This document shows, piece after piece, positions 3 to 5,438 of a stretch of 64,000 bases of DNA. The position numbers and the translations under genes were made by a program. The stretch is from an uncultured Alphaproteobacteria bacterium. Its GTDB lineage: Bacteria > Pseudomonadota > Alphaproteobacteria > CAAHEQ01 > UBA3637. The stretch is taken from the NCBI GenBank assembly GCA_934216505.1, contig CAKQBW010000001.1, positions 20,553 to 84,552 of the forward strand. Direction: 5' to 3'. Numbering within the stretch: position 1 is the first letter of the stretch; every line of letters starts with the position of its first letter. A model generated the notes under the pieces. The model did no database searches, was not told where the DNA came from, and worked only from the letters and a program-made list of their open reading frames with translations.

Positions 3-953
3 GGAGGCTCGGATAAAGGTGCAGGCGGCGGAACAAATGGCGGCTCAGAAAACGCCCCTGACGGTGGGTCCGATGGAGGCGCGGACAAAGGTGCAGGCGG
101 CGGAACAAGTGGCGGCCCAGGAAAGGTCTCTAAATCTGGGGCTGTTGGAACTGTTGAAAACAGACTCAAATCTGCTAAATCTGAAACACCTGAATTTATC
201 ACAACAACAAGCCAATATGGGGGGGATGATGGCAAGGCACTTACCCACACAAAAAAATATTCTAAAGACGGAGACTTTTTAATGCATGAAGATATAGTAG
301 ATAATTTAACCGGTTCAAGGACGCATATAGACCATACTTATGATTTTGCAGGGGGGGGATTTCCCGAAGAAAAAAAGAGTGTGCGACATGATTATAATCC
401 TGATGGGACATGCGCATATGTTTCAGAGATGAAGGTTAATAAAAATGGAAGAGATAGGGTGAGTCAGAAATATAAATCTGACGGGACAATTGATTATTAT
501 TCAATAGATTGCGTTGATAAAAATGGAAAAGAGAGGTACTATTTTTTTGAAAATGATCTAAGAAAAGAGAAAAGGGATTACAACTGTAAGTATAGAGGGA
601 AAGCAGTCAAAAGTGTGTTCGAGCTAACTCGTAAGGATGAAGGAGAGCAGGAACGAACTATTGTCTATCTTTCAGGGGAAAGGTATAGAGAACGCCAGTA
701 TAAGGATGATGAAGGTTGCAATATAACTTCAAAAAGCTTCTATGATTCATCGGATCGTTTGTGTAAACACACCTATGTAAATCATGACACAGGGGTAAAC
801 ACAAGTCTTGACTTAAAATATTACAAGAATGATAAAAATGAGAATATGATTGAACGAAAATTCACTGATTCATCGGGGAAGGTCTATAAACATATAATTT
901 TAAATGAGGCAACAGGTGAAGAAAAGGATATGTTAAATTCAAATGAAAAATAG
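3..953 (+). CDS. 3' portion of a large repeat protein whose start lies upstream of the window: Gly/Ser/Asp-rich 25-aa repeats followed by a Tyr/Asp-rich (YD-like) C-terminal domain
   Basis: Frame 3 is open from base 3 with no stops and is continuous with listed ORF 282..953. It translates as GGSDKGAGGGTNGGSENAPDGGSDGGADKGAGGGTSGG..., then HTYDFAGGGF / RHDYNPDGT / YKSDGTIDYY motifs. A 75-bp DNA direct repeat is visible at about 10-135. Confidence 0.6.
   Translation, partial: GGSDKGAGGGTNGGSENAPDGGSDGGADKGAGGGTSGGPGKVSKSGAVGTVENRLKSAKSETPEFITTTSQYGGDDGKALTHTKKYSKDGDFLMHEDIVDNLTGSRTHIDHTYDFAGGGFPEEKKSVRHDYNPDGTCAYVSEMKVNKNGRDRVSQKYKSDGTIDYYSIDCVDKNGKERYYFFENDLRKEKRDYNCKYRGKAVKSVFELTRKDEGEQERTIVYLSGERYRERQYKDDEGCNITSKSFYDSSDRLCKHTYVNHDTGVNTSLDLKYYKNDKNENMIERKFTDSSGKVYKHIILNEATGEEKDMLNSNEK
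8..135 (+). repeat. 75-bp in-frame direct repeat (Gly-rich 25-aa unit) in the 5'-truncated repeat protein
   Basis: GGATAAAGGTGCAGGCGGCGGAACAAATGGCGG and GGACAAAGGTGCAGGCGGCGGAACAAGTGGCGG lie 75 bp apart. Confidence 0.6.
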
Positions 954-2444: not shown

Positions 2445-5438
2445 ATGCAAAAATTTATTCATAGACTTATTTATATTTTATTGGGAGGACTTTTCCTTTT
2501 TGGTATTTCCTTGGGGCGTATTTCGGATATTCCCGGTTTTGATTATATCGTTGCCTTTTTGTGGGGCGGGGTCGTTGCTTTGCTATGTTTAGCCCTTGGC
2601 CGAAGAAAAGGATGGTGGGTTTTGTTGGTTGTGGTTTTGTTGGGGCAACCTGAACATGCTTGGGCAGATTCCTCTGTCCAAAGTTATTACAAGACCTATT
2701 GCGCAAAAGCAGAACAAGCCAAACAAAATAATTGGAAAGGAGAAAAGGAATGTGATGCTGAAGTTTTAGAGAAAGCTAGATATATTACAGCTTCTCAAAA
2801 AGGGACAACAACTAATGTTGGCAATCAAAATGAAGTCTTGTGTTCTTGTTCATCTGAATATGATTGTGCCCAAAAATTGATGACATTATGTTCTAATTAT
2901 GAAAGACGTCATCATTTGGAGAATGAAAAAAATAAAAAAGTTCATACCGTGATGGAAATTTTGGCGAATGAAGAGTCTGGGTGTTGGCCTTGTGATATGG
3001 CGGCGGTTGTCTTTGTGGTGATTCAAAATTTAAGTTTTACCCTAAATTCAGTGATGGTTCAGGTGGCTTTTATGTTGTTGAAACTCTTTTTTCTGGGCTG
3101 GATTATTTTTACGGGAATTACCTCTATCGCATTCCCAAGTAAGACTTCAACTTTTGTATCGCAAACTTTAATTCGCTTTATTGTTGTATCGTTAGTGGCG
3201 ATTGTTCTTTCCTCCAATGGAATGACAGCCTTATATACCAATTTTTTAAACCCAGTGATGGGGATTGGCATTGGTTTATCCGAAAAGGTGAGTGAGGCGG
3301 CTTTACCAACGGATAATTTTGGAACAACGATAACAAATTTGGTTTCTTCATCTACCCCGACGACAACTCGCACTTCTATGAATTATTGCCAGACAGGGGA
3401 TTCAGCCAGTTTTTCCAACATGATGAATAACTTTTTGGGAAATATGTCAAGCAGACTTTTATCATCCCGAGAAATGGGATATTCTTCCTATAATTCCAAT
3501 GTCAATAGTTATATGGCCACGACGCTTTCTCAGCAACTGATTCCTTTAAATAATGACAGCAATCAAGAATCCTTGTTAAATGATCAAATGAAGAATCAAT
3601 TGTTGTGTATGACGCAAAAGTTTTATAACCAAGTGGGCCCTTTTACAGCGATGGGACAGTCGTTGGTTGAATTTTCACGGGCAGATGAATCCAGTTATTT
3701 TGGTCTTAAGTTCCCAAATTTGGGAATGTGGCTGACGGGGTGGTTGTTGGTGGGAGTTTTTACTATTTTTGGCTTTTTAGTCGCCTTTCGGTTGATGGAT
3801 ATTTTTATGCGTTTGGCTTTGTTTTTGATTATGATTCCTTGGTGTGTGGCGGCAATAGCGTTCCCTATCACACGAGACTTTACAAGGAAAGGGTGGAATT
3901 TCTTTTTACATACAATTGTGGAATTTTTGGGATTAGCGTTGGCAATAGCCTTAGTTATGGTGATGTTTGAAAGTGTTGTCAGTCCTGATTCAGATAATTT
4001 AAGAAATGCCATCATGGCCCCTTATTCCAAAGATTATGGTCAAAATTTATATGATGTGATTTACAGTGGTGGGGCGGGGCGTTTCTTCTTTATGTTGATT
4101 ATTTCGGCTTATTTTGCGCTTAAAATTATGCAATCTATGACCTCTATATTGGAAGGATTGTTTGGGGTGAGTGGTGCAACCTCGGCGGGGTTGTTCTCTG
4201 AAATGGCGATGACAACAGTGGCTAGAGCGCAGCAGATGACCCGAAAAGCGACTGAGATTTCCAATAATAAAAACTTGCGCTTTAAAACGGCGGATATGGA
4301 AAAAGAAGAAGACATCAAGACAATGAAGAAAGATTTGCCCCGCTTGCAGGATAATATCAATCTACGGGCACTTCAACGGGATAATTTGGCCAAGAAAGCC
4401 GCTGAAATGGTGGCGCAAAAGGAACAGGCAGAAAGGAAAGCTGCATTGGCTTCGGCGACACAAGCAGAAAAAAAAGCAGCCCTTGAAGCAGCAAAAAAAG
4501 CACAGGAGGCTCAAAAAGAGGCTGAAATGGCTGAAAAAAAATTACAGTTAGCCAAGCAACAATTATTGAATAAACAAGCCAAAATAGCGGCGGCTGAAAA
4601 CGAATTAAAAAATATGTATTTGGGCTTTAAAACCTCATCGGCCAGTTTTGCCCCCCGTCGTTATGCCGAAAATTCGGCGAATGCCTTGCATTATTATTCC
4701 CAAAAAATGGCGGGAAAAGCAGAAAGGATTTTGGTGGGGGGTGGTCAATTATTGAATAAAACAGGGATTGGGGCCATTATTGGGGTACCGATGGTTTATG
4801 CGGGAAAACTGATTTCTTGGGGGTTGCGGGGAACCACAAAAACAATTTCGTCTACCGTCCATGCCGTTGGGGCTACCCCTGAAACAGTGAAAAATACAGT
4901 TTCTGCTGTTGTGAATGCCCCTAAAAACATTGTTAAAGGGGTGCAACAAGGGGTTAAAAATGCGACAGAAACGACTAAAGATTTAGTTGGCTTTTCCCTC
5001 CATATGACGAAAAAGGCGACCTATGATGTTCCTAAAGCGGCGATTAAAGAGACCGTATCGGCGGTGGTAAATGCGCCCCAAAACATTGCCAAAGGTGTAA
5101 AGGAAGCGGCTGAAACAACCAAAGATGTGGTGGGCTTTTCTGCTCATGTGGTTAAAAAGGCCACCTATGATGTTCCTAAAGAGGCCATTAGGGGGACTGT
5201 ATCAGCAGTGGTAAATGCCCCTCAAAATATTGTTCAAGGTGTTAAGAGTGCAGGAACGGCGACAAAAGAGGCAGCGGGCTTTGCAAAATACATGGCGAAA
5301 AAAGTGGCCTACGATAATCCGAAAGCCGCTATTAAAGGGGCCGTCTCGGCGGTGGCAAATGCACCCAGAAATACGATGCGAAAGATTAAAAATGCCGCCA
5401 AATTTCCAGGGGATTTGGTAAAAAAGATTTTTAAGTAA
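2445..5438 (+). CDS. 997-aa polytopic membrane protein sharing the CWPC motif, with coiled-coil region and four ~48-aa C-terminal repeats; possibly a VirB6/TrbL-like paralog with C-terminal extension
   Basis: N-terminal TM segments are followed by a Cys-rich periplasmic stretch and ESGCWPCDMAAVVFVV before a TM segment. There are several more TM segments. A Lys/Ala/Glu coiled coil (KKAAEMVAQKEQAERKAALASATQAEKKAALEAAKKAQEAQKEAE) follows. The C-terminus carries 4 repeats of ATYDVPKAAIKETVSAVVNAPQNIAKGVKEAAETTKDVVGFSAHVVKK. Confidence 0.45.
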   Translation: MQKFIHRLIYILLGGLFLFGISLGRISDIPGFDYIVAFLWGGVVALLCLALGRRKGWWVLLVVVLLGQPEHAWADSSVQSYYKTYCAKAEQAKQNNWKGEKECDAEVLEKARYITASQKGTTTNVGNQNEVLCSCSSEYDCAQKLMTLCSNYERRHHLENEKNKKVHTVMEILANEESGCWPCDMAAVVFVVIQNLSFTLNSVMVQVAFMLLKLFFLGWIIFTGITSIAFPSKTSTFVSQTLIRFIVVSLVAIVLSSNGMTALYTNFLNPVMGIGIGLSEKVSEAALPTDNFGTTITNLVSSSTPTTTRTSMNYCQTGDSASFSNMMNNFLGNMSSRLLSSREMGYSSYNSNVNSYMATTLSQQLIPLNNDSNQESLLNDQMKNQLLCMTQKFYNQVGPFTAMGQSLVEFSRADESSYFGLKFPNLGMWLTGWLLVGVFTIFGFLVAFRLMDIFMRLALFLIMIPWCVAAIAFPITRDFTRKGWNFFLHTIVEFLGLALAIALVMVMFESVVSPDSDNLRNAIMAPYSKDYGQNLYDVIYSGGAGRFFFMLIISAYFALKIMQSMTSILEGLFGVSGATSAGLFSEMAMTTVARAQQMTRKATEISNNKNLRFKTADMEKEEDIKTMKKDLPRLQDNINLRALQRDNLAKKAAEMVAQKEQAERKAALASATQAEKKAALEAAKKAQEAQKEAEMAEKKLQLAKQQLLNKQAKIAAAENELKNMYLGFKTSSASFAPRRYAENSANALHYYSQKMAGKAERILVGGGQLLNKTGIGAIIGVPMVYAGKLISWGLRGTTKTISSTVHAVGATPETVKNTVSAVVNAPKNIVKGVQQGVKNATETTKDLVGFSLHMTKKATYDVPKAAIKETVSAVVNAPQNIAKGVKEAAETTKDVVGFSAHVVKKATYDVPKEAIRGTVSAVVNAPQNIVQGVKSAGTATKEAAGFAKYMAKKVAYDNPKAAIKGAVSAVANAPRNTMRKIKNAAKFPGDLVKKIFK
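4870..5400 (+). repeat. ~3.7 tandem copies of a 144-bp (48-aa) in-frame repeat at the 3' end of the 997-aa membrane protein gene
   Basis: ACCTATGATGTTCCTAAAG recurs at 5019 and 5163; a diverged copy lies near 5307. Confidence 0.7.

Follow-up and report, generated by a model that had tools for sequence, protein, structure and literature searches.

VirB6 is an inner-membrane core protein and the least understood core part of the type IV secretion system (T4SS). The VirB6 protein of plasmid R388 (i.e. TrwI) has seven long helices of which alpha1, alpha2 and alpha5-7 are hydrophobic; alpha1 and alpha2 are the two helices inserted in the inner membrane and alpha1 is the proposed binding site of the VirB2 pilin (PMC9259494). 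This only solved VirB6 structure suggests that the first helix recruits pilin. Rickettsiales carry tandem arrays of extended VirB6 paralogs (i.e. RvhB6a-e of Rickettsia; VirB6-1 to -4 of Anaplasma, Ehrlichia and Wolbachia), and these are the closest known case for the locus examined here. The locus was found in a 64,000-nucleotide stretch of contig CAKQBW010000001.1 from an uncultured Alphaproteobacteria bacterium (the window, positions 20,553 to 84,552 of the contig), where two adjacent open reading frames (ORFs), ORF1 and ORF2, are tandem paralogs in a large, unannotated and metagenome-only TrbL/VirB6 subfamily of uncultured Alphaproteobacteria. The subfamily, of >700 clusters and with divergent members that are invisible to Pfam, adds a conserved and probably periplasmic Cys pair at the start of the putative pilin-recruiting helix, so that redox state and Cys mutants could serve as a natural way to probe VirB6 function.

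The array resembles those of the Rickettsiales in having 3-6 tandem paralogs with a TrbL/VirB6 core and very low inter-paralog identity, long hydrophilic N- or C-terminal extensions, predicted lipoboxes on some paralogs, 3' repeats and an alphaproteobacterial host (PMC2653234, PMC7648143). Unlike the Rickettsiales arrays, which follow virB3-virB4 in the sodB-virB operon, it has no other vir gene in reach and is linked to a regulator with two helix-turn-helix (HTH) domains and to a gene for a secretin-like protein. ORF1 and ORF2 also fall below Pfam detection whereas all of the Rickettsia paralogs match PF04610 (PMC2653234). An earlier note on this DNA, made from the letters alone, had compared the pair to the Rickettsiales arrays; the comparison stands for the tandem paralogs, extensions, lipobox and C-terminal repeats but not for the virB3/virB4 neighbourhood or for an escalation of size along the array. 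Size escalation was rejected as a property of the array as sizes run long-short-long in related loci, the third, upstream member being cut by the edge of the window.

Assignment of ORF1 and ORF2 to the TrbL/VirB6 superfamily

ORF1 (i.e. B6_1, nt 943-2433, 496 amino acids (aa)) and ORF2 (i.e. B6_2, nt 2445-5438, 997 aa) are on the + strand, as are the other module genes and further window genes given with start and end coordinates below. A BLASTP comparison of the two proteins gave an E-value of 2e-4 with 24% identity over 111 aa beginning at a shared CWPC motif. Profiles were generated for the ORF1 family (A1, 12 homologs) and the ORF2 family (A2, four homologs), and these aligned by hhalign with a probability of 98.3% and an E-value of 1.4e-14 over 355 columns extending from the motif to the last hydrophobic helix. 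The two proteins are hence paralogous, as the earlier note had proposed, with homology reaching well past the motif.

A TrbL/VirB6 signal was also detected, and neither of the two findings that the earlier note had named as refuting its idea was thus obtained. An exhaustive HMMER search with A1 detected 743 cluster representatives at E<=1e-3, of which 187 had E<=1e-10. A match to PF04610 (TrbL/VirB6) was present in 35 of 71 sampled relatives (E<=0.01; best E 2.2e-11) and always covered the third to fifth hydrophobic helices; four relatives that were checked individually scored 31-34.5 bits, exceeding the PF04610 gathering score of 25.9 bits. Alignment to a six-member profile of the Pfam-TrbL-positive relatives (A9) gave 99.5% and E 2.3e-23 over 345 columns for A1, and 99.3% and E 9e-21 over 332 columns for A2. 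When a profile of the 71 relatives (A4) was searched against the PDB, the single significant sequence was TrwI (E 2.5e-7). An AlphaFold2 model of ORF1 (pLDDT 56, pTM 0.50) contained seven long helices, of which alpha1, alpha2 and alpha5-7 were hydrophobic, and the top nine Foldseek matches for this pLDDT 56 model among 350,542 PDB chains were all TrwI/VirB6 chains (probability 0.63-1.0, E 0.02-0.65, TM-scores 0.35-0.45). The predicted helix and hydropathy pattern, with a large loop after alpha2, fits that of canonical VirB6, i.e. TrwI (PDB 7O3V, 8RT9) and VirB6 of A. tumefaciens (PMC9259494).

The central loop of TrbL proteins contains a motif, P...FP-x-T-R-x-F-x-x-x-W, with an essential Trp, and the window proteins share with canonical VirB6 the form L-x-P...(F/W)P-x-T-(R/H)-x-F...W together with an Ala/Gly/basic C-terminal tail. 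ORF2 has a good copy of the loop motif (AFPITRDFTRKGWNF / MIPWCVAAIAFPITRDFTRKGWNF / AFPITRDFTRKGW), while in ORF1 the T-R is weakened (LLPFYLAYWIFPSLSRGILKKLF). The paralog upstream of the ORF1 ortholog in a related locus (L001) reads IPQTRKYANAAW and TrwI reads GPLFILALIWQPTHRFFDQW (WQPTHRFFDQW in the comparison with ORF2). The proline of the motif (P329) is near-invariant.

Several results weigh against this assignment. Neither ORF1 nor ORF2 had a match in Pfam or NCBIfam even at E<=1, and the low confidence of the ORF1 model (pLDDT 56) limits the structural comparison. Direct hhalign comparisons of A1 and A2 with the TrwI sequence were not significant (E 0.29 and 0.054, respectively), so that the link to TrwI is transitive; the regions paired in these weak alignments were nevertheless those expected. 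Neither the narrow A1 and A2 profiles nor the six-member A9 profile obtained a meaningful match in the PDB sequences. Sequence, motif and fold are consistent with each other in spite of the transitive link, and membership of ORF1 and ORF2 in the TrbL/VirB6 superfamily, as divergent members, is regarded as highly probable and the family identification as solid.

A tblastn search of 72,556 plasmids with the ORF2 core and one Pfam-positive relative found no match, indicating that the subfamily is unseen on known plasmids. Cluster look-ups of the relatives returned almost no names, one relative being labelled 'VirB6-like' by its source. Two of the 71 relatives carry an M23 domain and two carry an SseC-like region.

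The C-W-x-C signature and the accessory regions of the paralogs

An N-terminal export signal and, after it, a C-W-x-C signature characterize the subfamily; the signal takes the form of a lipobox in ORF1 and of hydrophobic segments with a Cys-rich domain in ORF2. ORF1 starts with a signal peptide and the lipobox L-N-G-C21 (nt 943-1005). Residues L18, G20 and C21 are invariant in the 12 homologs, whose consensus is L-T-G-C, and ORF1 is therefore a predicted lipoprotein. The VirB6-like core (residues 37-422, nt 1051-2208) follows, C21 being 17 residues before the motif. The sequence ANCWPCKMY noted earlier is present at residues 37-45 (residues 35-49, EQANCWPCKMYMQAF), its CWPC being C39-W-P-C42 (nt 1057-1068), and SGCWPCDMA is present at residues 178-186 of ORF2 (residues 176-190, EESGCWPCDMAAVVF), where CWPC is C180-W-P-C183 (nt 2982-2993) in a core spanning residues 176-576 (nt 2970-4172). 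The earlier note had placed the motif immediately before a transmembrane (TM) helix. This holds for ORF2, where it directly precedes the first hydrophobic helix of the core, but not for ORF1, where the strongly hydrophobic stretch begins ~17 residues past the motif. In the ORF1 model the motif opens a single long predicted helix (residues 40-88, alpha1) and sits exactly at its N-terminal cap.

In a six-frame translation of the 64-kb window CWPC was present at the ORF1 and ORF2 sites only, and the number expected by chance in the 1493 residues, using local amino-acid frequencies, was 6.6e-5. The motif was invariant in the 12 ORF1 homologs and four ORF2 homologs. The claim of a conserved motif is thus upheld within both families, with the qualification that CWPC itself is one variant of a wider signature that across 142 aligned relatives reads C-W-x-C-x-[LIMV]-[FY]-x-x-[VLI]-F-[ND]-A. 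The first Cys was conserved in 140 of these relatives, the second in 134 and the Trp in 113; the x position was F in 38, P in 33 and S or T in 32. Both Cys were retained together in 134 relatives, six kept only the first and two had neither, with several of these eight reading RWWKxIF. The joint retention mostly fits cysteines that work as a pair. A lipobox-like site was detected in 67 of 135 relatives, most often 17-21 residues before the motif.

TrwI (342 aa) opens directly with alpha1 (VAFELFTPLFNKIDQ...) and has no signal peptide, no CxxC and one Cys in total, indicating that the export signal and C-W-x-C cap are additions of the subfamily. The window proteins further differ from TrwI in having a longer loop and long tails. 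Two papers on the Rickettsiales proteins (PMC2653234, PMC7648143) mention no C-W-x-C motif, which sets those arrays apart at the level of published descriptions. A literature search found no paper linking TrbL/VirB6 with CXXC; as far as this search showed, the signature and gene context are new while the superfamily was already known.

The motif probably faces the periplasm, since it follows the lipobox and is situated among many conserved Cys in ORF2. In the ORF1 family the only conserved Cys besides the lipid-modified C21 are C39 and C42. The ORF2 family has eight invariant Cys (C86, C103, C141, C149, C180, C183, C315 and C388; four homologs), an even number, located around CWPC and in the large loop. 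The two signature cysteines would most likely form an intrahelical disulfide that caps and stiffens alpha1 on its periplasmic side, at the surface of the membrane; alternatively, they could be a redox-switchable or metal-bridged pair. A redox or metal role, as suggested in the earlier note, is consistent with the position and conservation of the motif.

ORF2 is of an 'extended' type. Its N-terminal hydrophobic segments and an A-W-A site are followed by a Cys-rich domain (nt 2700-2891) that contains the cluster described in the earlier note (C103 of CDAEV..., then C133-S-C135...C141...C149) and also C86; C86, C103, C141 and C149 are the residues invariant in the four homologs. Downstream of the core, residues 620-740 (nt 4302-4664) are rich in Lys, Ala, Glu and Gln (Ala 21%, Lys 17%, Glu 11%) and helix-prone, and this region is variable or missing among homologs. 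The Lys/Ala/Glu composition claimed for it was confirmed and a coiled coil is plausible; 'helical linker' is preferred here as no clear register emerged from a crude count of heptads.

A Gly-rich, moderately hydrophobic segment then follows (residues 765-795, nt 4737-4829; LNKTGIGAIIGVPMVYAGKLISWG). Residues G767, L770, K772-A777 and G780-P782 show no variation among the four ORF2 homologs and the segment is kept even in homologs that lack the helical linker and repeats. A TM segment is predicted at this position in the ORF2 ortholog of locus L018. The segment may form an additional helix in the membrane, which could decide the side on which the C-terminal repeats are found. These repeats, four tandem copies of 48 aa as had been described (residues 808-997, nt 4866-5438), have the unit KKATYDVPKxAIKxTVSAVVNAPQNIxKGVKxAxxTTKDVVGFSxH and were detected by TRF with a period of 144 nt and 2.5 copies. 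Copies 2 and 3 are identical at 31 of 48 residues of the protein while copies 1 and 4 are more divergent. The repeat has a weak likeness to the C-terminal tail of ORF1 (BLASTP E 0.18-0.49) and may be a tail module that was amplified.

A conserved eight-gene module and its possible function

ORF1 and ORF2 belong to a module of eight genes in the order: a VirB6-like gene (CWFC type, 595-852 aa), an ORF1-type lipoprotein gene (418-496 aa), an ORF2-type gene (504-1011 aa), a dual-HTH_3 regulator gene and the genes for p175, p408, p384 and p239. Nine related loci carry all eight in this order (L001-L003, L008, L011, L013, L015, L017 and L018); a further locus, L016, has seven of the genes before the contig ends, and L009 and L014 duplicate L001 and L003. 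The related contigs are all from metagenome-assembled genomes of uncultured Alphaproteobacteria. In the clade of the window the module is situated between secF and gltX, with yajC-secD-secF upstream; the flanks of the module or array differ in L008 and L006. The genes overlap or are separated by 2-57 nt with no terminator-like site between them. A promoter and terminator scan gave background levels, the best promoter-like site preceding gltX, just past the module.

Pfam assigns the regulator (nt 5496-6473) two HTH_3 domains of the XRE type and, faintly, a C-terminus like Peptidase_S24. The regulator is the best-conserved gene of the module, exhibiting 61-84% identity where the VirB6-like proteins have 30-38%, and stays linked to VirB6-like arrays even where it is transcribed divergently from them (L021, L022). 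Both p175 (nt 6499-7026) and p408 (nt 7016-8242) are conserved soluble proteins whose family is unassigned, p408 being acidic and having no Walker A motif. The p239 protein (nt 9411-10130) is bitopic: its N-terminus is Pro-rich, it has a single TM segment, and its C-terminal domain (~95 aa) contains two invariant Cys. No match to known families was obtained for p175, p408 or p239 in the searches run: Pfam/NCBIfam scans of ORF1, ORF2 and six neighbours returned HTH_3 only, PHROGs gave HTH matches only for all eight module proteins, a Pfam scan of the p408 homologs returned nothing and profile searches of the PDB with p384, p408 and p239 gave nothing significant.

The p384 protein (nt 8255-9409) is a secreted protein and is secretin-like by its predicted fold. 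A confident AlphaFold2 model derived from 28 homologs (pLDDT 81, pTM 0.71) contained N0/N1-type domains and a C-terminal secretin beta domain, which is the architecture of secretins by structure. Foldseek matches in the PDB were almost solely to secretins, with 33 at <=1e-3; the best was BfpB (E 1.2e-9) and others included V. cholerae PilQ, InvG, GspD/ExeD/XcpQ and pIV of phage f1, i.e. secretins of type IVb pili, type II secretion systems (T2SS), type III secretion systems (T3SS) and filamentous phage. In contrast to these proteins, p384 has only 384 aa, which is unusually short, and no lipobox, and no pilin, prepilin peptidase, PilB/GspE ATPase, PilC/GspF platform or T3SS gene is nearby. The p384 protein is regarded as probably secretin-like.

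Variation among the more distant loci extends to paralog number and gene arrangement. The window clade has three paralogs while L006 has five or six tandem VirB6-like genes (CMVC, CWIC, CWSC, CWGC, CWIC), the first being Pfam-positive. In L021 and L022 the regulator is transcribed divergently from a set of four VirB6-like genes that includes a fusion to an M23 peptidase. The L022 fusion (7543-9990, 815 aa, CWSC) joins a VirB6-like paralog to Peptidase_M23, a peptidoglycan hydrolase, as would fit a machine that crosses the cell wall. Homologs of p384 and p239 are on the other side of the regulator in L022, where the same gene set is present in a rearranged form. The distant arrays are headed by, or contain, genes for small proteins (60-72 aa, two hydrophobic helices; L022 3501-3683, L021 3868-4068, L006 15766-15984) that recall the VirB2 pilin or VirB3 by size and shape. 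In L001 the space from secF to the first paralog is too small for such a gene.

The linkage of a VirB6-like array to the secretin-like module could reflect a single envelope-spanning machine, for which the chances are judged to be about even or slightly lower. In such a machine, the paralogs would assemble, probably as a mixed pentamer like VirB6, into an inner-membrane base, with the variable C-terminal extensions (i.e. helical linker and 48-aa repeats) as lineage-specific add-ons, as in Rickettsiales. The outer-membrane channel would be p384, the bitopic p239 and the cytoplasmic p175 and p408 would be further parts, and the whole would be controlled by the dual-HTH regulator, the energy source not being encoded within the module. 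A functional link of this kind would mean that VirB6-type platforms and secretins are combinable, blurring the line between T4SS and secretin systems, and that a new envelope system is present in little-known, probably host-associated Alphaproteobacteria. In a more specific version, the module is a new VirB6-secretin chimera in which p384 replaces the VirB7/9/10 core and a dedicated VirB4-type ATPase is absent or is recruited from elsewhere; this version is tentative and considered rather unlikely.

A number of observations count against a linked machine. To our knowledge no T4SS uses a secretin and every characterised VirB6 works with a VirB4 ATPase, and no publication on a VirB6-like protein that functions with a secretin emerged from our literature search, in which three papers containing both terms did not connect them. 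The 64-kb window has no ORF with the size or Pfam family of VirB4, VirB11, VirD4, GspE or PilC, and among the loci with gene tables the precomputed Pfam labels showed no T4SS or T2SS ATPase family up to 10 kb from the module. In L019 and L020 the regulator-p175-p408-p384-p239 genes occur without an adjoining VirB6-like gene, and the two halves of the module are therefore separable. The secretin assignment of p384 derives only from its predicted fold: the homologs had no match to Pfam Secretin (PF00263), and sequence signals did not rise above noise, with STN in five of 28 homologs (E>=0.034) and Secretin_N in one of 28 (E 0.046).

The array might instead be the VirB6 part of an ordinary T4SS that is scattered over the chromosome in the manner of rvh, with VirB3/B4, VirB8-11 and VirD4 encoded elsewhere and the secretin operon serving a separate process as a neighbour through shared regulation or vertical inheritance. 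Each characterised VirB6/TrbL functions within a VirB4-containing T4SS (general knowledge; PMC9259494), the vir genes of Rickettsiales are split among loci with VirB6 multiplied and extended (PMC2653234, PMC7648143), and both the isolated secretin sub-modules of L019 and L020 and the VirB2/VirB3-sized two-TM proteins (60-72 aa) in the arrays of L021, L022 and L006 would fit such an arrangement. The trwI gene itself is situated between VirB5/eex and VirB8 and beside VirB4, whereas ORF1 and ORF2 have no VirB4 in the window. No T4SS family besides TrbL was found in the 64-kb window or in the Pfam labels of loci with gene tables, the Rickettsiales array directly follows virB3-virB4 and this array never does, and the array-regulator-p384-p239 linkage outlasts both rearrangement (L022) and changed flanks (L008, L006), which is unexpected from vertical inheritance. 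A scattered T4SS is the main rival explanation, possible but less likely than a linked machine. If a standard T4SS is encoded elsewhere, the multiplied and extended 'Rickettsiales-type' VirB6 array reaches another lineage and the signature becomes a tool for annotators.

A departure from secretion altogether, with the proteins acting as membrane thiol-disulfide oxidoreductases or metal handlers of a DsbB/VKOR-like kind on a VirB6-derived fold, is very unlikely. The CxxC is the most conserved feature of the subfamily, ORF2 adds a Cys-rich periplasmic domain, and the motif resembles those of oxidoreductases (thioredoxin CGPC, TlpA CVPC, ResA CEPC, DsbB) in being at a helix N-terminus, as in redox-active CxxC proteins from general knowledge, in its probable periplasmic location and, in part of the family, in the x-Pro-Cys form. 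These proteins nevertheless have no thioredoxin fold and no quinone site, and the motif is within a VirB6-type membrane helix; the ORF1 model is all-helical and membrane-embedded, there is no Pfam match, and C39 and C42 are the only conserved free Cys where DsbB and VKOR need a second conserved pair. Variation of the residue between the Trp and second Cys (F, P, S, T) is unusual for a tuned redox site, and the 3-6 tandem extended paralogs, the M23 fusion of L022 and the secretin-like link fit an envelope machine better. Coincidence, i.e. a chance or relic motif in two unrelated membrane proteins without a functional unit, could appeal to the weak BLASTP match and to the tendency of hydrophobic proteins to match profiles spuriously but is refuted by the hhalign results (355 columns from motif to last helix; 99.5% and 99.3% against A9), the low chance expectation, the invariance of the motif in both families with its near-invariance in 142 relatives and the conserved gene order.

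The upstream paralog and the surrounding chromosome

A third gene, B6a, is cut by the edge of the window (nt 3-953). The reading frame (frame 3) extends from base 3 to a stop codon at 953, giving an 11-nt overlap with ORF1. The visible part is a soluble C-terminal stretch of 316 aa, Gly-rich at first and then composed of Y-x-x-DG...Y repeat units, which recall MORN/YwqK-type repeats. No counterpart of this part was found in any of the related loci compared, indicating that the extension is specific to this organism. The ORF1 orthologs of all related loci are immediately preceded by a gene for a polytopic protein of 595-852 aa. The upstream paralogs of L001, L003 and L018 carry CWFC, a regex scan of that of L002 found no CxxC, and that of L001 matched Pfam TrbL with E 3.3e-5 and 24.2 bits, below the gathering score. 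From synteny, B6a is almost certainly a VirB6-like paralog, the third of the array, and the visible part is read as its C-terminal extension. The 5' part of the gene outside the window was not recovered, as the exact ORF1 has no database record and a contig carrying an identical ORF2 (L023) begins later than the window.

The remainder of the window is ordinary chromosome (e.g. gltX, tolB, rpsB-tsf, fusA, rpoA, dnaB, ruvB and genes for a YadA-type adhesin, starch synthase and RNase J) with no rRNA. The YadA-anchor protein (nt 12108-13559, 483 aa), a trimeric autotransporter adhesin, is encoded ~2 kb downstream of the module and occupies the same place in L001 and L023. In L023, gltX and slyX are called as one product of 613 aa (10007-11848) while gltX of the window stops at 11842 with 548 aa; a frameshift or differing gene calls probably account for this. 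All 2-kb bins of the window (nt 1-64000) have a positive GC skew (0.07-0.27) and almost all of the long ORFs run on the + strand; the window appears to be on one leading-strand replichore.

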